From positions 1 through 25,256 of the IMG/VR virus record IMGVR_UViG_3300020442_000208: a stretch of DNA of 25,256 nt. The stretch is one strand, 5' to 3'. Position 1 is the stretch's first letter. Each line of letters begins with the position of its first letter. Both the position numbers and the translations under genes were made by a program. Shown one piece after another: positions 1,328-23,362 of the stretch. The stretch is from a virus (Duplodnaviria; Caudoviricetes). Under the pieces are notes generated by a model. The model saw nothing but the letters and a program-made list of their open reading frames with translations, ran no database searches and was not told where the DNA came from.

Positions 1328-2764
1328 ATGTACTTAGGATGGAGTGAAGGATTTCACGATGCCGCTGTAAGTATTATTGACGAAAAAGGTAATATAGTAT
1401 TTGCAAGCCACTCAGAAAGATTTTCTGGGAAAAAACACGAAAAATTTATTTCAACTGAATGTCAAACATTCATTGAAACCTATTACGGTGATAAAATTAA
1501 ACACCGTGCTTTCTTTGAGAAACCTATCTTGAAGAAAACAAGACAGTTCTACGCTGGTCAATGGAAAACTGTCTTATCCCCTCGAAAGTTGACTTGGAAA
1601 CCAGATTCGTTCTGGCACCATCACAAATCACACGCAGCTGGAGCATTCCAAACTTCAACGTTTGATGAAGCAGCTGCCGTGGTTGTGGACTCAATAGGAG
1701 AGTGGGATTGTACTACCGTTTGGAAATGTTGGTATGATTCTAACGGTAAAGCGCACTACAAGAAAGTCTATAATGAACGATACCCCAACAGTATCGGATT
1801 ATGGTATAGTGCATTGACCGATTATGTTGGACTAAGACCTTTAGATGAGGAGTATATCTTTATGGGTATGGCTGCCTTTGGTAAGGTCAAACACGATCTC
1901 TGTGTGCAATTAGAAGAATTATTGCATTACGGAAACTTGCATCGAGGCATACCCGAAGGATTCTTTGGAGACTCTCATACCAACGAGGACATAGCTGCTT
2001 CTGCACAAGTTGTCCTTGAACGAAAACTATTTAAGGTTTTTGAGATCGCAAGTAAGATAAATGAAAACATAGTATATGGTGGTGGGGTTGCACTTAATTG
2101 TGTAGCGAATGCGAAGTTACAAAAGTCATATCCAACTATGTGGATTATGCCAAACCCAGGCGATGCGGGTGGTTCACTTGGTGCAGCTGCTCTTGCATAC
2201 GGAAAGAAAGTACACTGGGAACACGCATATCTTGGTAGAAGTATCGCACCATCAACCTACGCAAACTTTATTGCGGAAGAAGTAGTAGAAGAACTACTGA
2301 AAAATGGCGTTGTAGGGGTAGCACACGGTAGGTCAGAATTTGGGCCACGTGCATTAGGTAACAGATCGTTACTTGCAGACCCTCGTGGAAAAAACGCAAA
2401 AGATCGTGTAAATGGGATCAAGAGAAGACAGAAGTTTCGTCCCTTTGCGCCCGTAATATTAGAAGAACGTTCTAACGATTACTTTAGTAACTATGGGCCA
2501 AGTCCTTATATGTCGTTTGTATATCGAACATATAAAGATAATGACGTACCCGCAATAGTACATAAGGATGGTACTGCAAGGATACAAACCGTACCTTATA
2601 ACAGTCCATCAATTATACGTGCTATATTGGAAAAGTGGTACGAAGAAACTGGATGTCCTCTTTTGTTAAATACAAGCTTAAACATAAGGGGCGAACCAAT
2701 GGTTGATACTGTATTGGATGCAATCAGGTTCGAAGAATTATATGGAGTCAAAGTCGTATACTAA
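1328..2764 (+). CDS. Carbamoyltransferase (NodU/CmcH/TobZ family)
   Basis: Motifs GFHDAA, SERFS, HHHKSHAA, VDSIGE, GGGVALNCVAN, PGDAGGSLGAA, EFGPRALGNRSLLADP, KRRQKFRPFAP, HKDGTARIQTV, LLNTSLN. SD GAGGTG upstream. Confidence 0.95.
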   Translation: MYLGWSEGFHDAAVSIIDEKGNIVFASHSERFSGKKHEKFISTECQTFIETYYGDKIKHRAFFEKPILKKTRQFYAGQWKTVLSPRKLTWKPDSFWHHHKSHAAGAFQTSTFDEAAAVVVDSIGEWDCTTVWKCWYDSNGKAHYKKVYNERYPNSIGLWYSALTDYVGLRPLDEEYIFMGMAAFGKVKHDLCVQLEELLHYGNLHRGIPEGFFGDSHTNEDIAASAQVVLERKLFKVFEIASKINENIVYGGGVALNCVANAKLQKSYPTMWIMPNPGDAGGSLGAAALAYGKKVHWEHAYLGRSIAPSTYANFIAEEVVEELLKNGVVGVAHGRSEFGPRALGNRSLLADPRGKNAKDRVNGIKRRQKFRPFAPVILEERSNDYFSNYGPSPYMSFVYRTYKDNDVPAIVHKDGTARIQTVPYNSPSIIRAILEKWYEETGCPLLLNTSLNIRGEPMVDTVLDAIRFEELYGVKVVY

Positions 2765-2888
2765 AAAGTTCTTTAAAGAATTTCATAAATTGATGAAATC
2801 TGGAAGACTAAATAAAATAGTAAAACACTCACTAGAAAATGAAAAACATAATAAAAAAGATAGACGAATTCGAGAGAGAGTGGCGTAG
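2742..2888 (+). CDS. Small basic hypothetical protein (MESKSYTKKFFKEFHKLMKSGRLNKIVK...)
   Basis: ATG at 2742 within tracked ORF 2703..2888. Bridges the carbamoyltransferase and desaturase genes, overlapping both. Confidence 0.45.
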   Translation: MESKSYTKKFFKEFHKLMKSGRLNKIVKHSLENEKHNKKDRRIRERVA

Positions 2889-3603
2889 ACACATTCTCGC
2901 TGCTACGCAACCAATTTGTTGGTTAGCGTTTATTCCTATGGTGATGTACGCAACACCTATGGAATGGTTTATTTGTCTTATAATATGGCAATTGATGACA
3001 CTCGGTGGAACTACTGGTTACCATCGAGTGTTTTCTCACGGACACTGGAAAGACTGTCCTGCTTGGGCAAGAAGTATTTTTGCTCTCTTTGGTGCAATCG
3101 GATTTATCGGCCCTGCGATTCCTTTCGCCGCTGTTCATCAAGAACATCACCGATATCACGATACAGAAAAAGACCCGCACTCTGCATACTACAAAGGTCA
3201 CTTCTGGACATACGTGACTCCACAACTTGCACCCTTTAAACGTAGATATCTAGTAGGAGACGGTAAAGATCACTTCCGTAAACTACTGCGTGATCCTATA
3301 CTACAGGTACAGGAAAGATATTACTGGTTCATCATTTTAGGATGGATCGCATTTTTGCTATTGACAACCTTTGATCCGTTTAGTATAATATACGGATTAC
3401 TTGCACCCGCTGGGTTACTCAAACTATTTGCAAATCTATTGTTTGGGTATTCTCATAGGGATCGCAAACCACATAACGATTTTTGGTTGGCAATAGTGAC
3501 ATTAGGTGAAGGATTTCATAAGGAACATCACGATAGACCTTGGGAAGTTCGAAACCATAAATGGGACATCTCAGGAAAAATAATCGAATTATTTTCAAAA
3601 TAA
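2839..3603 (+). CDS. Membrane fatty-acid desaturase (delta-9/DesC-like)
   Basis: Three His boxes (GYHRVFSH, HQEHHRYHD..DPH, GEGFHKEHH), several TM segments and a C-terminal WDISG motif. Confidence 0.92.
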   Translation: MKNIIKKIDEFEREWRRHILAATQPICWLAFIPMVMYATPMEWFICLIIWQLMTLGGTTGYHRVFSHGHWKDCPAWARSIFALFGAIGFIGPAIPFAAVHQEHHRYHDTEKDPHSAYYKGHFWTYVTPQLAPFKRRYLVGDGKDHFRKLLRDPILQVQERYYWFIILGWIAFLLLTTFDPFSIIYGLLAPAGLLKLFANLLFGYSHRDRKPHNDFWLAIVTLGEGFHKEHHDRPWEVRNHKWDISGKIIELFSK

Positions 3604-3606
3604 GTG

Positions 3607-3635
3607 TTGACAAAACCTGCCAGACTTGTTATCAT
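3607..3635 (+). promoter_or_regulatory. Sigma70-type early promoter
   Basis: TTGACA (3607-3612), 17-nt spacer, extended -10 TGtTATCAT (3627-3635). SD GAGAGG precedes ATG 3673. Confidence 0.85.
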
Positions 3636-3927: not shown

Positions 3928-4883
3928 TGAGTCACGAAGTAGAGACTATGGCGTATGCTGGTGAAGTTCCTTGGCACGGTCTAGGAACTCCAGTATCAAA
4001 CGACCTAACACCCAATCAAATGATGGTGAAAGCTGGACTTGATTGGTCTGTAAATAAAGTTCCGACCTATGCAAAGGTTGGTGATACTGAAGTAGAAACT
4101 GGTCAGGAGGCACTTATTAGGTCTTCTGATAACAAGGTTCTAACTCAGGTTGGTAAAGGATGGTATCCTGTACAGAACGAAGAAGCATTCGAATTCTTCT
4201 CTGAATACTGTCTAGAAGGTTCTATGGAAATGCATACTGCTGGTTCACTGAAAGGTGGAAAGATGGTATGGGGACTTGCAAAAGTCAAAGGAACTTTCGA
4301 AGCGGTTAAGGGTGATCCAGTAGAACAATTCTTCTTGTTCTCAAACCCACACGAGTATGGTAAAGCAATCGATATTAGGTTCACGCCTATTAGGGTTGTA
4401 TGTAACAATACTCTTTCTATGGCACTTGCAAGTGTGAAGAACACTGGAGTCAGGTTGTCTCATAGACAAATGTTCGATGCCGATATGGTCAAAGAACATA
4501 TGGGTATTGCAGATGAGAAGTTTGCACAATACAAAGAGGTAGCACAATACCTCGCATCTAAGAATTTCACTGCTGATGCATTGATCCAATATTACAATGA
4601 GGTCTTCCCTAGAACCTATCAAGGTAAGGAAGAGGTTATCGTGAAAGGATTTGATGACTTGACTTCTAATGGTCAAAAGGCATATGAGTTCTTGGAAACC
4701 CAGCCTGGCGCTGAGTTCGGTAAAGGAACTTGGTGGCAAGCACTTAACTCTGTGACTTATCTCACTGATCACGAGATGGGTAGAGAAACAGATTCCAGAT
4801 TGGCATCTGCTTGGTTCGGTGCAAACCAAACCAGAAAGATCAAGGCAGTTGAAAAAGCTGTCGAGTACGCTGAAGCGGTCTAA
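3927..4883 (+). CDS. DUF932 family phage/plasmid protein
   Basis: MSHEVETMAYAGEVPWHGLG, YPVQNEEAF, TAGSLKGG, FTPIRVVCNNTL, GTWWQALNSVTYLTDH. Confidence 0.9.
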   Translation: MSHEVETMAYAGEVPWHGLGTPVSNDLTPNQMMVKAGLDWSVNKVPTYAKVGDTEVETGQEALIRSSDNKVLTQVGKGWYPVQNEEAFEFFSEYCLEGSMEMHTAGSLKGGKMVWGLAKVKGTFEAVKGDPVEQFFLFSNPHEYGKAIDIRFTPIRVVCNNTLSMALASVKNTGVRLSHRQMFDADMVKEHMGIADEKFAQYKEVAQYLASKNFTADALIQYYNEVFPRTYQGKEEVIVKGFDDLTSNGQKAYEFLETQPGAEFGKGTWWQALNSVTYLTDHEMGRETDSRLASAWFGANQTRKIKAVEKAVEYAEAV

Positions 4884-4891
4884 GGAGACAT

Positions 4892-5341
4892 ATGAAAATA
4901 TTAATCTTAGGATTGCCAGGCTCAGGTAAAACAACTCTCGCAAGGGAGTTGTCTTACCATTTTTGTATACCGCATTTCAATGCTGATAGTTTACGTGAAG
5001 CATTTGACGATTGGGACTTCTCACCCGAAGGTCGAGAAAGACAATTCCATCGTCAAGCAGGTTGCATACAATCAGCGGGAATGGGTATTTGTGATTTTGT
5101 ATGTCCAAAGAATGATTTTCAAAGGAACTTTCCTTGTGACTATATAATATGGATGGATACAATATCCGAAGGTAGGTTTGAGGATACTAATAAGATGTTT
5201 GAGAAACCTATTGAGTATGATTTGAGGATAAAAGAATGGATCGACTTAAACCAACTACGCAACTCCTTGGACGGTTTCAACCGTGGCACAAAGGGCATAG
5301 CGAGTTATTTAAAAGAGCAATTTCCAAAACTGGTCAAGTAG
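4892..5341 (+). CDS. Adenylylsulfate (APS) kinase-like P-loop kinase
   Basis: Walker A GLPGSGKTT, NADSLR, DWDFSPEGRERQ, CDFVCP, FEKP (compact CysC-like pattern). SD AAGGAG. Confidence 0.8.
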   Translation: MKILILGLPGSGKTTLARELSYHFCIPHFNADSLREAFDDWDFSPEGRERQFHRQAGCIQSAGMGICDFVCPKNDFQRNFPCDYIIWMDTISEGRFEDTNKMFEKPIEYDLRIKEWIDLNQLRNSLDGFNRGTKGIASYLKEQFPKLVK

Positions 5342-5592
5342 TAATACTTCTCAGGGAAATGGAACAGGATGAAAAAAATCCTTATACCTTTGATGAGAGG
5401 AAAGCGGAGATAATCCGTGGACTCGCAGAAGAGGGTTTTGAACATACGGTAGACTATGAAATTATGAGTGTACCTAATATTACTCACATCACATATGGAC
5501 GTGATGTTGGTTACGCAATCGAACAAGAAACTCTGGGTGAGGAGATTGAATCGATTAGTGCAACTAAGATACGAAAGGAACGTGGAATCTAA
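5236..5592 (+). CDS. Small HIGH-superfamily nucleotidyltransferase (cytidyltransferase-like)
   Basis: LGRFQPWHKGH (HxGH motif), NPYTFDER, C-terminal ISATKIR. Overlaps the kinase gene by 106 nt. Confidence 0.85.
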   Translation: MDRLKPTTQLLGRFQPWHKGHSELFKRAISKTGQVVILLREMEQDEKNPYTFDERKAEIIRGLAEEGFEHTVDYEIMSVPNITHITYGRDVGYAIEQETLGEEIESISATKIRKERGI

Positions 5593-5773
5593 GAAGAAGA
5601 GTTTGTACAAAACTATATCTTGGAGAATTATTGCGAGTTGCGTTACTGCTCTAATCGCACTCGCATTCGGACTACCGCAGAAGGCAGTCGGTTTCGTTTT
5701 CCTAACTGATCTAGTAATCAAGTTTATTTTATATTATTATCACGAAAGAGCGTGGACAAAGTATGACAGGTAA
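5582..5773 (+). CDS. DUF2061-like small membrane protein
   Basis: GTG start at 5582 (SD AAGGA). ESKKKSLYKTISWRIIA...ILYYYHERAW is the typical DUF2061 pattern. Confidence 0.8.
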   Translation: MESKKKSLYKTISWRIIASCVTALIALAFGLPQKAVGFVFLTDLVIKFILYYYHERAWTKYDR

Positions 5774-6437
5774 TTTAGAAAATCATCCATCTACAAAGTG
5801 GAAGATGCAATTCGAACCATTAGTTCCTACAGGGTACTTTTTTGGTAGAATTGAGGATGACGTAATATCAGACAAAACGTATGATAAATGTATTGCTTGG
5901 GTTGAAAAGAATAAAGACAATCCGCAACAACTCAGTGTCGCTGACAACATATTTGATTCGAAATACGAGGATATTATAATTCCAGATACCGTACAGTGTT
6001 TTCAAGATGTCATTATACACATCGATGATATAATATTAGAATTTACGAACAACCAGTTGGAACTTGAAGGTATATGGGCTCAACATATGGAAACAGGTTC
6101 TTCAACTGCTTTACACGCTCACGTGTCACCGTTTGACGGTGCGAACCAACACGATTTGTCCTTTGTATTTTATTTACAAGCAGACGAATCTCACGGTGAG
6201 ATTAAGTTTCCGTTAAATATTGACGGAGTTTCTTATACAAAAACTTTCTTCCCTAACAGAGGCGGATTAATTGTTTTTCCCTCACATTGTCCACACTTTG
6301 TGATTCGAAACAAATCTAAAACACCAAGGGTTGTTATATCTGGTAATTACAGGAAGAAAGGGTGTAGAGAAAGAGCTAAACTCTTTTTCGAACATCAAGA
6401 AAAATTAAAGGAGATTGAAAATGGCGCATCTAGTTAA
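5763..6437 (+). CDS. 2OG-Fe(II) oxygenase superfamily protein (TIGR02466-like)
   Basis: IWAQ..HAH (HxH), LSFVFYL, GGLIVFPSHCPH, RVVISGN. Confidence 0.85.
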   Translation: MTGNLENHPSTKWKMQFEPLVPTGYFFGRIEDDVISDKTYDKCIAWVEKNKDNPQQLSVADNIFDSKYEDIIIPDTVQCFQDVIIHIDDIILEFTNNQLELEGIWAQHMETGSSTALHAHVSPFDGANQHDLSFVFYLQADESHGEIKFPLNIDGVSYTKTFFPNRGGLIVFPSHCPHFVIRNKSKTPRVVISGNYRKKGCRERAKLFFEHQEKLKEIENGASS

Positions 6438-7653: not shown

Positions 7654-8253
7654 ATGCAGATAAGTGAGAAAACTTTATATAATGAATATCTGTCTAGACA
7701 TCGTAGGAAACAAAACCGTGGTGCTAACGGAACACGAGATTCAGAGAGAAGTAAAACCTACTCCGCTGAATTCAAAATGTTATCGATGATCGATAATCCG
7801 ACATTCAAGGATATCCCAGAAGCACAACGTTGCGCTAAGAAGATTTACAAGTCTAAGACTTGGCAAAAACTTTGGCGTGAGTCAACCAACAGCGATGTCA
7901 CTCGTCTGTTTTTCTCTACTCCTGAAGTAGTAGCAAAGTTCAAGAACAGTGGTCGGGGAACTGCTGGGTTTACTGACGGACAAAAGGTTACCCTAGATAC
8001 TAGGGTAGGTTTGAACAAGTACACCCTCTTGCACGAACTGACTCACTGCCTTGGGCATATGCACCACGGTAGATCATTTAGGTATACTCTACTTAAAATG
8101 GTGGGCGCTTTTATGGGCGCCAAAGAAAAGAAGATTTTAGCGAGTGAATTTAAAAAGAGAAAACTCGCATATGGTAAGGCAAAGAAACCACTAGAGTTTG
8201 AACAGTGGAAAGAAATGCGTAACCGATTGGAGAAAATTCGTAATGTCACCTAA
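7654..8253 (+). CDS. HExxH metallohydrolase-like protein (Rv0185/TIGR04338-like)
   Basis: SERSKTYSAE, TLLHELTH, HHGRSF. SD AGGAG. Confidence 0.78.
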   Translation: MQISEKTLYNEYLSRHRRKQNRGANGTRDSERSKTYSAEFKMLSMIDNPTFKDIPEAQRCAKKIYKSKTWQKLWRESTNSDVTRLFFSTPEVVAKFKNSGRGTAGFTDGQKVTLDTRVGLNKYTLLHELTHCLGHMHHGRSFRYTLLKMVGAFMGAKEKKILASEFKKRKLAYGKAKKPLEFEQWKEMRNRLEKIRNVT

Positions 8254-10338: not shown

Positions 10339-10920
10339 ATGAGATTAGATCAAAGTTTATATGATCACGATTTTGTGAATCCATTACCGATAATCCATAA
10401 TGGTTATCTGGTAATGACTCCACCGAAGAACGCATCTTCGTTCTTCAATAGAATGTGGGGATTTGGTGTACAACCACCTAGAGAGGGTGAGGTACATACA
10501 AAGATTGCGATTAAACGTGACCCAATCCAGAGATGGTTGAGTGCGTTGAATCAACAGAGACAAAGATTACAATGGGGTGTTTGGAAACATAAACAAACAC
10601 TAGAAGAGAATATCTCGTTTTGGGAACAAGACCCTAACGAAATAATAGATATCCATCTACCGAAGAATAGTCCGATTAGAGAGATATCTGAATTTTGTGG
10701 ACAGTATGAATGGGCGGGGAGTATGACAGAGTATGACATTTGTGTATATCCCAGACACATAGACAAGTGGATATTACCTATGTTAAATGTCATACCAAAA
10801 GATGCGCCTAGAAATGAGTATACAGGTAAGGAAAAAAGAACCGAAAAAGACTTGACAAGTGAATCAAAAGAGAAGATAATGTACCTATATGAAAACGATT
10901 ACAAAAACGGTTGGTGTTAA
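10339..10920 (+). CDS. Sulfotransferase-like protein
   Basis: 5'-PSB-like PPKNASSF, 3'-PB-like KRDPIQRWLSA, C-terminal IMYLYENDY. Confidence 0.7.
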   Translation: MRLDQSLYDHDFVNPLPIIHNGYLVMTPPKNASSFFNRMWGFGVQPPREGEVHTKIAIKRDPIQRWLSALNQQRQRLQWGVWKHKQTLEENISFWEQDPNEIIDIHLPKNSPIREISEFCGQYEWAGSMTEYDICVYPRHIDKWILPMLNVIPKDAPRNEYTGKEKRTEKDLTSESKEKIMYLYENDYKNGWC

Positions 10921-10921
10921 A

Positions 10922-12139
10922 ATGAACTTTCAAGAGTTTATAACAGAACAGAAGAATACACATATGACCCACATTGAGGACAAGGTTCTCTATGGTGGTG
11001 TCGATGGTACACGTCAGGCAATAAATGCCTTACGTGATCTACGGGATATGTTAGGTGGTAAAGGTCAATCTAGACTATCTACTAAGTGGGATGGTGCTCC
11101 CGCTATTTTCTGTGGAGAAGACCCACGTGACGGAGAATTCTTCGTTGCGAAGAAAGGTATCTTTAATCAGAACCCACAGGTCTTCAAATCTGATGCAGAG
11201 ATCGATGCAGAATTATCTGGTGATCTCGCAGATAAGATGAAAGCAGCACTTAAGTACCTTCCTGATCTTGGCATTAAAGGTGTCATTCAGGGAGACTTCT
11301 TATACGGTGAAGGTGATGTAGTTGAGAAAACAATCGATAAAGTCAAGTATGTAACCTTCCACCCTAATACTATTGTGTATGCAATACCTAAAGAGCAGGC
11401 AGATGATGTTGTCAACTCAAAAATAGGTATAGTGTGGCACACTACATATAAGGGTAAGGATTTTGAATCTATGAAAGCACAGTATGGTGTGGACGTATCA
11501 AAATTCAAAACATCTAAAAATGTATGGTCGCAAGATGCAATGTTACGTAATGTATCTGGTGCGACAATGAATGAAAAGGAGACTAATGATGTTAACAAAT
11601 ATTTATCGCAAGCTGGTAAACTTTTTCGCAAAACGGCAGGAAGCACTCTCAGAGAACTCGAAGCAAATCAGGAACTCGCAGGGCTCATCGAAACCTACGG
11701 CAACACGTTCGTCCGTAAAGGGGAAGTCATCCCGAACTCGAAAAAGCACGTCCAAGGCCTCATCAAGTGGATCGAAGACAAATACCAAAAGGAAATCGCC
11801 AAGCGCAAGTCCCAAAAAGGTCAGCAAACCCAAAAAGACAAGCTCAACGAAATCCTCAAGTTCTTCTCGCAAAAGAACAAAAAAAGTTTAGAAAATATGT
11901 TTGAATTGCAGAGAAATATTGTCTTTGCGAAACTAAAACTTATAAATAAACTTAACAGCATCTCTAGTATCGATGCCTTTGTGCAAACAAAAGATGGTTA
12001 CAAAGTAACTGGTGCCGAAGGTTTCGTTGCTATAGATGACTTGGGTGGTGATGCGGTCAAGTTGGTTGACCGCTTAGAATTTTCGTACAACAACTTCAGT
12101 CCTGATGTACTGAAGGGATGGGATAAACCAACGAGGTAA
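10922..12139 (+). CDS. ATP-dependent ligase-like nucleotidyltransferase (DUF6267-like), conserved T4-like phage protein
   Basis: Motif I STKWDGAP, III VIQGD, IV AEGFV, V VKLVDR. N-terminus MNFQEFITEQKNTHMTHIED. ATG 10922 preferred over 10889. Confidence 0.8.
   Translation: MNFQEFITEQKNTHMTHIEDKVLYGGVDGTRQAINALRDLRDMLGGKGQSRLSTKWDGAPAIFCGEDPRDGEFFVAKKGIFNQNPQVFKSDAEIDAELSGDLADKMKAALKYLPDLGIKGVIQGDFLYGEGDVVEKTIDKVKYVTFHPNTIVYAIPKEQADDVVNSKIGIVWHTTYKGKDFESMKAQYGVDVSKFKTSKNVWSQDAMLRNVSGATMNEKETNDVNKYLSQAGKLFRKTAGSTLRELEANQELAGLIETYGNTFVRKGEVIPNSKKHVQGLIKWIEDKYQKEIAKRKSQKGQQTQKDKLNEILKFFSQKNKKSLENMFELQRNIVFAKLKLINKLNSISSIDAFVQTKDGYKVTGAEGFVAIDDLGGDAVKLVDRLEFSYNNFSPDVLKGWDKPTR
11589..11891 (+). 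CDS. Overprinted (+1 frame) Ser/Lys/Arg-rich basic protein, 100 aa
   Basis: SD AAGGAG at 11576-11581, 7 nt before ATG 11589. Across the overlap, 19 consecutive L/I/V/F codons of the host gene are all NTC. Confidence 0.7.
   Translation: MLTNIYRKLVNFFAKRQEALSENSKQIRNSQGSSKPTATRSSVKGKSSRTRKSTSKASSSGSKTNTKRKSPSASPKKVSKPKKTSSTKSSSSSRKRTKKV
11941..11948 (+). promoter_or_regulatory. Putative internal late promoter
   Basis: Exact TATAAATA within the CDS, about 200 nt upstream of the next gene. Could be chance in AT-rich DNA. Confidence 0.4.
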
Positions 12140-12142
12140 AAA

Positions 12143-12580
12143 ATGCCAAAACCAATGGGCTTTAAAGACTTTATCGCAGTAGATTACACCGAAACAGGTG
12201 ATGATCAACTCGCTTACAATGCTAAGAAACGTAAAACGCAAGACGAAGCGTTGACACGTCAGCAACGTATGGCAGCATCCCGCCGTATGAAAAAACTCGC
12301 TCGCAAAATTCAAATAGGTAAAAAGAAAGCTGCTAAGAAAGTAGCATCTATGGACAAGTTAAAGGTACGTGCAAATAAACAGGCACGTGAATTACTTCTT
12401 AAGAAAATGACTAAGGGTAAAGGAAAGGATCAACTTTCACTTGCACGTAGACAGGAATTAGAAAAGAAACTCGACAAAAAGAAAGCAGTCATTGCTAAAA
12501 TCGCAAAGAAACTGTTACCTAAAGTGAGAAAGAAAGAGTTAGAAAAGAAACGGGGTGGTGCAACAGGTGAGTCATCTTAG
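12143..12580 (+). CDS. Very basic helical protein (putative nucleic-acid-binding internal virion protein)
   Basis: MGFKDFI N-terminal motif; K/R-dominated sequence after DEALT. SD GAGGT. Confidence 0.8.
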   Translation: MPKPMGFKDFIAVDYTETGDDQLAYNAKKRKTQDEALTRQQRMAASRRMKKLARKIQIGKKKAAKKVASMDKLKVRANKQARELLLKKMTKGKGKDQLSLARRQELEKKLDKKKAVIAKIAKKLLPKVRKKELEKKRGGATGESS

Positions 12581-13760
12581 ATTTAAAGATTATTTAATAG
12601 AAGAAACGAAGGAAGTTTATTTTACTTTTGGTAGAATGAACCCGCCTACTATCGGTCACGGTAAAGTGATGGATGTTCTTAAGACAAAAGCAAGTGGTGC
12701 TGACTACAGAGTATACGTATCTCAGTCACAAGATGCTAAGAAAAATCCACTATCCTATTCAGACAAAATTAAACATCTACGCAAGATGTTCCCTCAACAC
12801 GCACGTCAAATTATGGTTGACAAAAAAGTGCGTACTGCAATCGAAGCACTAGTAGCACTATATGATGCGGGTTACCAAAAAGTTAATATGGTGGTTGGTG
12901 CGGATCGAATCCGTGAGTTTGATATACTTGCAAAGAAATACAACGGTGTAAAAGCAAGACACGGACTATACAATTTCAAATCTATCAATATCATATCTGC
13001 GGGTGAAAGAGACCCTGATGCAGAAGGTGTTGAAGGAATGTCAGCATCTAAGATGCGTGGATTTGCAACAGACAACGATTTCCAATCCTTTGCACAAGGA
13101 TTACCCGCAAAAGTAAATAACAAGGATGCGAAAAAACTTTTCAACGATGTTAGAAGAGGTATGGGTCTCAAGGAAGAGACCTCTTTCGCTAGACACATTG
13201 AGTTACCTGTTGTTTCCGAAACAAGAGAACAATTTGTAAAAGGTGATCTGTTCGAACTTGGTGACACTGTTGTTATCAAAGAAAGCGAAGAGGTTGGTGT
13301 TATTACTGTACTAGGTGCTAACTATGTTATCGTAGAAATGTCAGACGGTAAGAAAATGCGTAAGTGGTTAGATGCAGTAGAGGTTATAGAGAAGAAACTA
13401 ACACCCGCTGAACTCAAGAAGAGAGAAGAGATCGCAAAAGCAATAGAAAAAGATAATCCCGATATGCCAATGGATAAGAAAATGGCAATCGCAACTGCAA
13501 CCGCAAAAAGAGTTGCAGAAGAAGGTAAGGGTAAGAAACAAGACCCCGATATTAAAGATAGAGAAGGGACACAACCCGCACGATATCATAAAGGTCTTGC
13601 AAAGTCTACTAAGAGTAAACGTGATGCCCACTTTAAGAAACACGGTAAGAAAGCAGATGATGATCAATCTGCATATAAACCAGCGCCTGGCGATAAGGGA
13701 TCGAAAACAAAACCTTCGAAATATACGAAGTCATTTAAACAAATGTTTGGAGATGATTAA
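12567..13760 (+). CDS. Phage cytidyltransferase-like (HIGH superfamily) protein with C-terminal appended modules
   Basis: FTFGRMNPPTIGH, KNPL, VVGADR, SAGERDPD, MSASKMR. Then an SH3-like segment and basic modules. Start GTG 12567 (or 12555). Confidence 0.88.
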   Translation: MSHLRFKDYLIEETKEVYFTFGRMNPPTIGHGKVMDVLKTKASGADYRVYVSQSQDAKKNPLSYSDKIKHLRKMFPQHARQIMVDKKVRTAIEALVALYDAGYQKVNMVVGADRIREFDILAKKYNGVKARHGLYNFKSINIISAGERDPDAEGVEGMSASKMRGFATDNDFQSFAQGLPAKVNNKDAKKLFNDVRRGMGLKEETSFARHIELPVVSETREQFVKGDLFELGDTVVIKESEEVGVITVLGANYVIVEMSDGKKMRKWLDAVEVIEKKLTPAELKKREEIAKAIEKDNPDMPMDKKMAIATATAKRVAEEGKGKKQDPDIKDREGTQPARYHKGLAKSTKSKRDAHFKKHGKKADDDQSAYKPAPGDKGSKTKPSKYTKSFKQMFGDD

Positions 13761-21373: not shown

Positions 21374-23362
21374 ATGCCTATAAAAATAGATAAGAAGAGG
21401 GATGAACTACTCGCTGAATATGCAGTGGGTATGTTAAAGGATTTCTACCTCACAAGTCACGAGAAATCACCACAAGAAGGATACGCAAGGGCCGCTAAGG
21501 CGTGGTCAACCTATTTGGGAGAGACAGATGGAGAACTTGCACAACGCATTTATGATTATGTTAGCAATAAGTGGTTTATGTACGCTTCTCCAGTATTGTC
21601 TAATGCCCCTAACGGAGAAGACTCCAAAAGTAAAGGGTTACCGATTTCTTGTTTCCTTACTTACGTCCCAGATACTCTTGAAGGTCTCATTAGTCATAGT
21701 TCTGAGTTACGTTGGCTTAGTGTTTATGGTGGCGGCGTTGGGGGTCACTGGTCAGACGTGCGAACTGTGTCCGACATTGCGCCTGGCCCTATCCCGTTCT
21801 TACACACTGTAGATGCAGATATGATCGCTTACCGTCAAGGTAAGACACGTAAAGGATCATACGCCGCTTATATGGATATCCACCACCCTGATATTGTGGA
21901 GTTCCTGAACATACGTATTCCTACAGGTGATGTACAACGTAAGGCATTGAACTTACACAACGCAATTAATATTACAGACGAATTTATGGAGGCAGTAATA
22001 AACGATACTGACTTCGATCTACGTGATCCTAAAGATGGAACAGTAAAAGAGTCTATCAACGCACGTAAACTTTGGGAAAGAATTCTTGAGGTGAGATTCC
22101 GTACAGGTGAACCTTATCTCAATTTTATTGACACTGCAAACAAACATCTACCAGAAAATCTAAAAGAACTGGGTTTGAAGATTCACGGAAGTAATCTCTG
22201 TAATGAGATTCACCTTCCAACTTCAGATGATCGTACAGCAGTGTGTTGTTTATCGTCACTTAATTTGGAATACTATGATGAATGGAAAGATACAACTATT
22301 GTCCGTGATCTTGTGCGGATGCTTGATAACGTCTTGCAGTTCTTTATCGAGCGTGCCCCAGACACCATCACCAGAGCAAAATACTCCGCAGAACGAGAAC
22401 GTTCCATTGGACTCGGAGCTATGGGATTCCATTCCCTATTGCAAAAACATAATGTTGCGTGGGAATCTGAAGCGGCACGAGATATTAATAAAGTGGTGTT
22501 TGGATTTATTAAAGAACAAGCAGAAACAGAGTCCAGAGTTTTGGCAGAGGAAAGGGGGGAATATCCTGATGGCATTGGAACGGGGAAACGTAATGCACAT
22601 CTGTTGGCAATTGCACCCAACGCCTCAAGTGGAGTTATTCTGTCAACTTCCCCAAGTATTGAACCACTCAAGGCAAATGCATATACCCATAGAACGAGGG
22701 CGGGTTCGTTCCTCGTAAAGAACAAATATCTGAAAGCACTTTTAGAAGAAAAAGGTGAGAACACAGATTCAACGTGGACTTCTATTATAACAAATAAAGG
22801 ATCGGTACAACACTTGCCGTTTCTGACAGAAGGTGAGAAAGCAGTATTCAAGACTGCGGATGAACTCAATCAGATGTGGGTGGTTAAACACGCAGCTGAA
22901 AGACAACCATTTATCTGTCAAGGTCAAAGTGTGAATCTATTCTTCCCTTCAGGTGTGGATAAATCTTATGTTAATAAGGTTCATCTTAGTGCTTGGAAAG
23001 AGGGGTTAAAAGGACTCTACTATCTAAGAACAGAAGCGAAGTCTCGTGCAGAGAATGTTTCTGAGAAAGTAGAAAGGGTTGCACTACAAGATGATATCAG
23101 AAATGTGATCTATGGTAAAAAAGATTGTCCGTTCTGTGCAATGGCAAAAGAAGAGATGAAACTACGTGGGATTCAGTACGACTATGTTGATCTTCAAGAA
23201 GTTGGTAAAACAGCTGCTGAAGTGACAGGTAGGAAAGTAAAGACTGTACCACAAATTTATCTCGAAGGTGAGTACATTGGTGGTTATGATGAGTTGATGA
23301 AGTATTTCGATGCAAATGGAAATACAGAAGAAAGTGAAGAATGTACTGCTTGCGAAGGTTAA
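21374..23362 (+). CDS. nrdA: Ribonucleotide reductase class Ia alpha subunit with fused glutaredoxin domain
   Basis: ASPVLSN, PISCF, GGGVG, GSNLCNEI, VCCLSS, IGLGAMG, AIAPNASS, CQGQSVN, KGLYYLRT. Then CPFC..TVPQI..IGG and terminal CTACEG. No N-terminal ATP cone. Confidence 0.97.
   Translation: MPIKIDKKRDELLAEYAVGMLKDFYLTSHEKSPQEGYARAAKAWSTYLGETDGELAQRIYDYVSNKWFMYASPVLSNAPNGEDSKSKGLPISCFLTYVPDTLEGLISHSSELRWLSVYGGGVGGHWSDVRTVSDIAPGPIPFLHTVDADMIAYRQGKTRKGSYAAYMDIHHPDIVEFLNIRIPTGDVQRKALNLHNAINITDEFMEAVINDTDFDLRDPKDGTVKESINARKLWERILEVRFRTGEPYLNFIDTANKHLPENLKELGLKIHGSNLCNEIHLPTSDDRTAVCCLSSLNLEYYDEWKDTTIVRDLVRMLDNVLQFFIERAPDTITRAKYSAERERSIGLGAMGFHSLLQKHNVAWESEAARDINKVVFGFIKEQAETESRVLAEERGEYPDGIGTGKRNAHLLAIAPNASSGVILSTSPSIEPLKANAYTHRTRAGSFLVKNKYLKALLEEKGENTDSTWTSIITNKGSVQHLPFLTEGEKAVFKTADELNQMWVVKHAAERQPFICQGQSVNLFFPSGVDKSYVNKVHLSAWKEGLKGLYYLRTEAKSRAENVSEKVERVALQDDIRNVIYGKKDCPFCAMAKEEMKLRGIQYDYVDLQEVGKTAAEVTGRKVKTVPQIYLEGEYIGGYDELMKYFDANGNTEESEECTACEG

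Follow-up and report, generated by a model that had tools for sequence, protein, structure and literature searches.

ATP sulfurylases are currently divided into two kinds, Sat and CysDN. In Allochromatium, sat and aprMBA have been shown to form an operon, as described in the available text of PMC3779200. For SAR11, the accessible part of PMC12636525 counts aprAB among the core genes, reports that purifying selection on them is very strong and calls the pathway incomplete, while excerpts of PMC5069961 and PMC3448164 report sat as absent or strain-specific. In P. ubique, AprBA is present and both sat and cysDN are absent, according to the same excerpt of PMC5069961. A search of the openly accessible literature found no description of the small nucleotidyltransferase (NTase) family considered here as an ATP sulfurylase. 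This mini-NTase is likely to be an undescribed and very small ATP sulfurylase by predicted activity, because its relatives occupy the seat of sat in ocean bacteria.

The window, which is the whole stretch of DNA analysed here (25,256 nucleotides), is a 25-kb virus record with T4-like gene content. On its plus strand, the earlier note had described three overlapping genes for an APS-kinase-like protein, an NTase and a DUF2061 protein, and all three are present. The first (4892..5341) encodes a short kinase of 149 amino acids, assigned an APS-kinase fold by fold search and alignment, with a P-loop (GLPGSGKT) and no RDxKG lid; a Shine-Dalgarno-like AAGGAG precedes it in the sequence at 4882..4887. 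The second (5236..5592) encodes the minimal NTase of the HIGH superfamily, a candidate mini ATP sulfurylase on the basis of a PF01467 score above the cut-off, its model, fold searches and context. Its own Shine-Dalgarno-like sequence, GAGGA, lies within the kinase gene at 5224..5228. The protein had been described as a 118-residue HxGH enzyme ending in ISATKIR. The length and the motifs (GRFQPWHKGH, YGRDVGY and ISATKIR) are correct, but ISATKIR occupies residues 107-113 and stops 5 residues short of the C-terminus. The third gene (5582..5773) encodes a small DUF2061 membrane protein of 63 amino acids (PF09834, 49.5 bits against a cut-off of 23.1, E 5.6e-13), counted from a GTG at 5582 that was chosen from its homologs. 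The kinase and NTase genes overlap by 106 nt, the NTase and DUF2061 genes by 11 nt. A further 11-nt overlap joins the DUF2061 gene to that of a 2OG-Fe(II) oxygenase (5763..6437; PF13640 and PF13759 above cut-off), and the same order is found in the related viral locus L018.

Several other genes of the window may be recorded here. A carbamoyltransferase and a fatty-acid desaturase are encoded upstream (1328-3603), and L018 keeps this order through the module; a carbamoyltransferase also lies close to the kinase-NTase pair in L065. A strong sigma-70-like site (11/12, extended -10) at 3607-3635 precedes the gene run leading to the module, in a promoter scan that returned 14 sites against 9.9 expected. 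A DUF6267 protein (phrog_455; 10889-12139) follows the sulfotransferase-like ORF discussed below, and downstream of this ORF lies a second, unrelated HIGH nucleotidyltransferase (phrog_395/3041; 12555-13760). A ribonucleotide-reductase-like large subunit, recognised by eye, is encoded at 21374-23362 and has a C-terminal glutaredoxin-like domain (weak, E 2e-4).

The APS-kinase likeness of the kinase is borne out by its fold and pocket residues. The model (pLDDT 94) was matched in VIA alignments to APS kinases or APS-kinase domains in the top five rows (Z 12.2-13.3); gluconate kinase, at Z 11.9, is less than about 1 Z unit or so away. Foldseek likewise ranked APS kinases best, the first other family appearing at rank 14, and among single-domain PDB entries a profile of 131 homologs matched APS kinases best. 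Residues G7, L8, G12, K13, R35, R48, F69, P72 and T99 are invariant in the 131 sequences. The conserved residues D32, R35, F43, R48, Q51, F69 and P72 align to 3cr7 and 2yvu, and in the same profile D32-x-x-R35, F43, R48, Q51 and F69-x-x-P72 match the pattern DxxR..F..R..N..FISP of Penicillium APS kinase. These aligned pocket residues presumably bind APS. The window kinase nevertheless scores below every APS-kinase cut-off, and its Pfam and NCBIfam scores are at P-loop level only: PF01583 gave no row at E<=0.05 and TIGR00455 was not among the best 25 rows. The RDxKG lid motif was found neither in the window kinase nor in any of the 120 longer homologs listed. A fused relative from Microvirga clears PF01583 (54.1 against 21.1). 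The kinase is thus predicted from fold and alignment to be CysC-like in its working, yet it stands outside CysC by curated cut-offs.

The model of the NTase (pLDDT 96) is a minimal HIGH fold. The earlier note had proposed a stripped-down Sat and a structural comparison of Sat with NMNAT and PPAT. In that comparison NadM (Z 11.2), PPAT (Z 10.5) and archaeal NMNAT (Z 10.0) all come nearer than Thermus Sat (Z 8.8), and the proposed ancestry is not supported. The core does superpose on Sat over 114 of 118 residues (rmsd 3.1), but it aligns to residues 149-329 of 1v47 only, so the N-terminal beta-barrel domain I of Sat is missing. The PF01747 score is below the cut-off (15.0 against 24.3 bits). H18 and H21 of the HxxH motif are invariant in 135 sequences, R40 is invariant among the homologs, and GRD and the SxTxxR pattern occur in 213 and 229 of 240 homologs, respectively. 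The HAG that follows GRD in Sat is missing, and many relatives have GRG in place of GRD itself. QxRNP was found in none of the 240 homologs, and the window protein has GRFQP instead. HxxH, GRD and S(G/A)TxxR match three of the Sat motifs given in the available text of PMC3779200 and PMC6607087, in which the QxRN loop is the phosphosulfate-binding motif. The NTase is therefore not a trimmed Sat, because it is without QxRN and the first domain of Sat and is closest to NadM-type NMNAT. It is not a member of the Sat family and probably not a descendant of it. Its substrate cannot be read from the structure alone.

The likeness to NMNATs raises the alternative of an NAD-pathway pair, in which a cut-down NadM-type NMN adenylyltransferase and a kinase would correspond to NadR in reverse order and serve NAD salvage or counter-defence. 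NMNATs are the best HMM, PDB-sequence and fold matches of the NTase, which carries the GRFQPxHxGH motif and the fold of NadM and archaeal NMNAT; moreover, a NADAR gene precedes the fused relative in phage Sano and a PRPP synthetase gene is present in L019, so that two phage groups have neighbours of an NAD flavour. The sequence likeness, however, stops near residue 82, and scores on NMNAT models are far below their cut-offs (NF002243, 42.5 against 127; TIGR01527, 33.6 against 181.2). The model shows no helix at residues 80-101. The segment after the third strand is taken to be the NMN-binding segment in NMNATs. In addition, four of five NTase carriers have their own NadD, the partner kinase matches APS kinases, and no NAD-synthesis family was found among 74 scanned neighbours from bacterial loci. 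An NAD-pathway role is very unlikely on this evidence. The second-ranked fold match, PPAT, would suit a minimal CoA synthase made of a phosphopantetheine adenylyltransferase and a dephospho-CoA kinase, and CoA synthesis likewise includes both the transfer of an adenylyl group and a 3'-phosphorylation. Dephospho-CoA kinases match the kinase model at only Z 8.1-8.7, where APS kinases reach 12.2-13.3, CoaD is present in four of the five carriers, and the contexts are sulfur-related, which makes such a synthase extremely improbable.

The pairing of the two enzymes is widespread. From 74 loci found in IMG/VR, 68 were kept after L069-L074 were dropped as weak matches to other families, and 80 bacterial loci were kept out of 570 confirmed. 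A kinase gene lies just upstream of the NTase gene in 66 of the 68 viral loci, the other two ending at a contig edge, and in 76 of the 80 bacterial loci. The DUF2061 gene is an optional partner: within the examined flank it is present in 15 of the 68 viral loci and in 4 of the 80 bacterial ones. Fusions are common: 2,423 longer proteins were matched, and of the 120 listed, 118 have the kinase first. This is the domain order of animal PAPS synthase. The two window proteins match the two halves of PHROG 10255, at profile positions 2-117 and 127-229. Some relatives have a small ORF of 73-81 amino acids between kinase and NTase (L036:5778-5999, L040:1775-2020), and in L141 a DUF2061 gene (7790-8005) takes this place. 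A short kinase without an NTase match occurs in three records of Ralstonia (jumbo) phages (MG752970.1, AB366653.2/NC_010811.2).

Within the overlap (5236..5341), the C-terminal 34 residues of the kinase (W116 to K149) are encoded by NTase codons 1-35 in another frame, including the codons of GRFQPWHKGH. No indel at the overlap was listed in any of four sequencing runs, and contigs span it without gaps; the RNA runs contain the module region as contigs only. The pair is neither chance nor an assembly slip, because no indel was seen in the four runs and a kinase lies upstream in most loci. An assembly error or a broken fusion was ruled out on the same absence of indels and on the recurrence of the overlap in many loci. 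A programmed frameshift joining both frames was thought unlikely: the NTase has its own Shine-Dalgarno sequence and ATG, and the slippery-looking TTTAAAA falls past the HxGH codons. Purine runs akin to GAGGA are found in most overlap-type relatives. Of the 68 viral loci, 21 have an overlap of 106 nt and 11 have one of 112 nt, and a tail of the same 34-residue length ends 79 of 120 kinase homologs. At identical NTase residues, codons differ in 24.5% of cases inside the overlap and 54.7% outside it (16 loci), the kinase value outside the overlap being 51.1%; across 28 overlap-type rows the values are 33.1% and 52.7%. The corresponding values for overlap-free relatives are 49.9 against 43.7% (23 viral) and 49.4 against 47.4% (72 bacterial), and these controls rule out low synonymous change as a general 5'-end effect. 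Kinase tail identity is 0.65 against 0.415 +/- 0.011 under random synonymous coding, a null that takes no account of shared ancestry; the inside/outside codon contrast does take account of it. The 106-nt overlap is a conserved, dual-coding region under selection in both frames. In the kinase model, the tail forms helices at 119-126 and 132-142 (pLDDT >90), and the APS-kinase alignments reach residues 142-144; the overprinted tail thus appears to replace a terminal helix whose codons, in other relatives, lie ahead of the NTase gene. A quick tree needs four changes, two of them forced, and does not establish a single origin of the overlap.

The gene contexts of bacterial and archaeal relatives point to sulfate activation. 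These genomes are all incomplete to some degree and a missing gene is to be read as not found, while the co-occurrence counts come from related genomes and each neighbourhood represents roughly one clade, so that p-values on these counts are overstated. In the order of the SAR116 genome G001, aprA was found in 6 of 121 genomes; in four of these, which have no mini-NTase, a canonical sat lies 1.4-1.5 kb upstream, and two have a lone mini-NTase in that place. Gene maps show the order NTase-aprM-aprB-aprA in G001 and G217 (SAR116 order) and in G171, G141 and G092 (Pelagibacterales), and sat-aprM-aprB-aprA in G264, G318 and G321, with G209 added by coordinates; aprM is named here by position and mutual similarity, not by a curated model. 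The five genomes with NTase-aprMBA probably represent two lineages. No Sat or CysD match was found in G217. G001 also has a Sat, in a separate sugar-type island, and Sat and NTase occur together in G328 and in six of the eight SAR11 Sat carriers as well, so that exclusion is imperfect. Among 201 Pelagibacterales (SAR11) genomes, the NTase is present in 164, aprA in 167 and Sat in 8; NTase and aprA are both present in 155 and both missing in 25 (6.3 expected), with 9 genomes having only the NTase and 12 only aprA. One genome, G089, is unpublished, and the result is unchanged without it. In many Pelagibacterales genomes the two genes lie tens to hundreds of kb apart, and physical linkage is therefore not the explanation of their co-occurrence; shared ancestry may be in part behind it.

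The SAR86 order offers a different setting. No aprA was found in its 121 genomes; the NTase is present in 58, Sulfotransfer_3 (PF13469) in 65, both in 55 and neither in 53, which leaves 10 genomes with the sulfotransferase and no NTase. CysD was found in 2 of the 121, both without the NTase, and Sat in 1. In the 80 bacterial loci, Sulfotransfer_3 lies directly upstream in 12, and aprA within the flank in 13; 14 loci have a gene of the CysQ cluster, which is directly upstream in 13 and has xsc nearby in 11. In 12 SAR86 loci, a 367-aa protein (c24; L091:6492-7595) is encoded directly upstream of the kinase; it has no Pfam or NCBIfam match and no similarity to sulfotransferase was found. Eleven plasmid records were matched, of which four were examined. 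The three from haloarchaea (L180, L182 and L183) all carry the cassette sulfotransferase, CysC::mini-NTase and YqcI/YcgG, and both of the CysC::NTase fusions that were scored pass TIGR00455. The fourth, from Microvirga (L181:4803-10341), encodes a sulfotransferase, a kinase-NTase fusion with decayed NTase motifs, a CysD-like protein and a CysN-like protein that lacks an APS-kinase domain and has DUF2061 at its C-terminal end. We take this to be a Nod-type sulfation locus with genes nodH/P/Q. A DUF2061 gene in nod loci is also mentioned in the available text of bioRxiv 2022.04.26.489235.

These contexts show a link to APS, not a reaction, and they leave room for an NTase that handles APS or an analogue by other chemistry, such as the breakdown of APS with phosphate or water or the adenylylation of sulfonate, phosphonate or selenate, with the kinase 3'-phosphorylating the product. 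The missing QxRN and the kinases' best, though weak, score on the divergent PRK05541 subfamily would fit such a role. PRK05541-type kinases can act on other nucleotide carriers, as in Campylobacter Cj1415. Against this, the NTase replaces sat seat for seat, is fused to a canonical CysC beside a sulfotransferase, and has decayed where CysD/CysN-like genes adjoin, while HxGH and SxTxxR point to NTP/PPi chemistry. Other chemistry is considered unlikely. The idea that the NTase is an ATP sulfurylase in sulfate activation, as first suggested, is thus upheld in part: several independent contexts tie the family to APS/PAPS chemistry, and it is the Sat ancestry that fails.

On the phage side, a sulfotransferase-like ORF had been noted at 10339..10920 (plus strand). 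It exists and encodes 193 amino acids with the motifs PKNASS (PKxxS(S/T)) and RDPxxRxxS, both presumably sulfotransferase motifs. Its own PF03567 score is below the cut-off (14.4 against 22 bits), a homolog in L002 clears it (23.1 bits), and the Atlas model of the ORF matches Sulfotransfer_2 clusters (TM 0.67 over 157 residues, both sides predicted). It is very likely, on motifs and predicted structure, to be of sulfotransferase fold and is a candidate PAPS consumer; that it consumes PAPS from the pair is plausible, the shared genome being the one tie. A homolog lies nearby in only 1 of 68 viral loci (L002), and an IMG/VR pattern scan for the ORF gave no match. Among 50,697 isolate phage records, 12 have a full-length NTase match and all 12 carry a sulfotransferase-like gene, but these records are two lineages, not twelve. 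Eleven of them share a gene of the Sano gp33 type less than 1 kb upstream (weak PF17784, E 4e-4), and DLP6 has a PF03567 gene elsewhere in its genome. Sano gp33 (L075:6561-7148), annotated as hypothetical, has the appearance of a divergent sulfotransferase. The 11 records with its full-length homologs are those that carry the fused enzyme, and FoX4 has a partial homolog. A PF03567 search missed the candidates of Sano, Salvo and the complete genome G006; of other sulfotransferase profiles, phrog_3347 matched two of five, PF13469 one of five weakly, and phrog_3542, which was uninformative, none.

The pair might instead make or use APS and PAPS for host metabolism, yielding ATP from host APS or serving host sulfotransferases or reductases, and not for ORF 10339. 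The module lies 4.7 kb from this ORF with unrelated genes between, 59 of the 68 viral loci are without a sulfotransferase-like gene in the examined flank, and the viral neighbours are often DnaB, UvsX or Thy1. Weighing on the other side are the nine loci that do have such a gene, directly upstream in six (Sulfotransfer_2 in L025 and L028-L032), the sulfotransferase-like gene of all 12 isolate records, and G006, in which a motif-bearing relative of ORF 10339 is encoded far from the module (E 0.007). A role confined to host metabolism is accordingly judged quite unlikely. The available part of PMC2938197 predicts that clusters of dioxygenase, sulfotransferase and PAPS synthetase act on collagen-like or tail-collar proteins, with hydroxylation followed by sulfation. 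The oxygenase at 5763 makes this scheme a lead and no more; the enzyme (5763-6437) could possibly make hydroxyl acceptors.

Taken together, it is probable that the pair is a PAPS module in which a non-orthologous mini ATP sulfurylase and an APS kinase, both by predicted activity, supply phage sulfotransferases. The NTase would adenylylate sulfate (ATP + sulfate = APS + PPi), with the invariant R40 perhaps doing the job of the QxRN arginine of Sat, and its APS-kinase-fold partner would phosphorylate APS to PAPS. Two ATP would be spent per PAPS, and the kinase would pull the unfavourable first step. The overlap and the internal Shine-Dalgarno sequence may couple translation where relatives use a fusion, and the overprinted tail is predicted by the model to supply the terminal helix. 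The PAPS would feed phage sulfotransferases, ORF 10339 being a likely candidate, and a first guess for the acceptor is a hydroxyl group, perhaps introduced by the oxygenase, on a surface protein or glycan of phage or host. In SAR11 and SAR116, the same enzyme may run backwards, converting APS from AprBA and PPi to ATP and sulfate.

The PAPS-module reading is supported by the swap at the sat seat, the co-occurrence with aprA in SAR11 and with sulfotransferase in SAR86, the locus neighbours, the haloarchaeal CysC fusions beside a sulfotransferase, the Microvirga locus, the kinase-first order, the sulfotransferase-like genes of the 12 isolate records, the three Sat motifs, and the carriers' own NadD and CoaD. 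Against it stand the absent QxRN, the change of GRD to GRG in relatives, a kinase below cut-offs and without a lid, and a sequence and fold that favour NMNAT and PPAT over Sat. The imperfect Sat exclusion, the SAR11 and SAR86 genomes with one partner only, the few viral flanks with a sulfotransferase, the Ralstonia kinases without an NTase, and the NAD-flavoured neighbours also count against it. On balance, we lean towards a broader view in which ATP sulfurylases include a third kind that arose in the NMNAT branch and has one third of the size of Sat. This would be the enzyme reported missing from SAR11, where it would complete the path from sulfite through APS to sulfate with a gain of ATP, and would serve PAPS synthesis in SAR86, haloarchaea and many marine phages, with the kinase helix overprinted on active-site codons in this phage clade. 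The presence of a 120-residue candidate in 164 of 201 SAR11 genomes makes the SAR11 sulfur gap testable by one assay. If the assignment is true, the scoring of sulfur pathways in marine genomes and viromes would change, and phages would build their own PAPS, a sign of sulfation chemistry in phages that has gone unstudied. In the 106-nt overlap, moreover, nature offers a clean example of a structural helix overwritten on the catalytic motif of an enzyme.

Compared with Sat (PF01747; Allochromatium 4dnx, Thermus 1v47, yeast Met3), the NTase has the same HIGH Rossmann core, the HxxH, GRD and S(G/A)TxxR motifs and the seat before aprM-aprB-aprA. In contrast, it has about 118-130 residues where Sat has about 390, lacks the N-terminal barrel domain, has GR(F/W)QP for QxRN and YGRDVG for VGRDHAG, and falls below the Pfam cut-off. 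NadM and archaeal NMNAT (1f9a, 1ej2, 2qjt) and PPAT/CoaD are closest in sequence and fold and share the GRFQPxHxGH and NP motifs. However, the NTase is 50-60 residues shorter than these stand-alone enzymes, has no helix between 79 and 102 in the model, scores far under the family cut-offs, and has APS-related partners. For the kinase, CysC (Penicillium 1m7g, Mycobacterium 4rfv, Aeropyrum 2yvu) is the best fold match and shares the P-loop and the DxxR..F..R..N/Q..FxxP pattern, but the phage kinase has only about 145 residues and no RDxKG lid, is below cut-offs, and has a terminal helix whose codons run, in another frame, through the start of the gene that follows. Bifunctional PAPS synthases (human PAPSS1, 1x6v; Aquifex Sat-APSK, 2gks) also join or couple an APS-kinase domain to a HIGH adenylyltransferase, and both domains of 1x6v and 2gks turn up in the fold searches of the kinase and the NTase. 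These synthases have 530-630 residues, whereas the phage-type pair is a fusion of about 260 residues or two overlapping genes, its kinase is without the lid motif, and the family is found in phages, SAR11, SAR86 and haloarchaea. PHROG 10255 ('kinase'; Sano gp35, Salvo gp32, DLP6 gp227) has the same two domains as the window pair, but in a single fused protein that is annotated merely as a kinase or as hypothetical.
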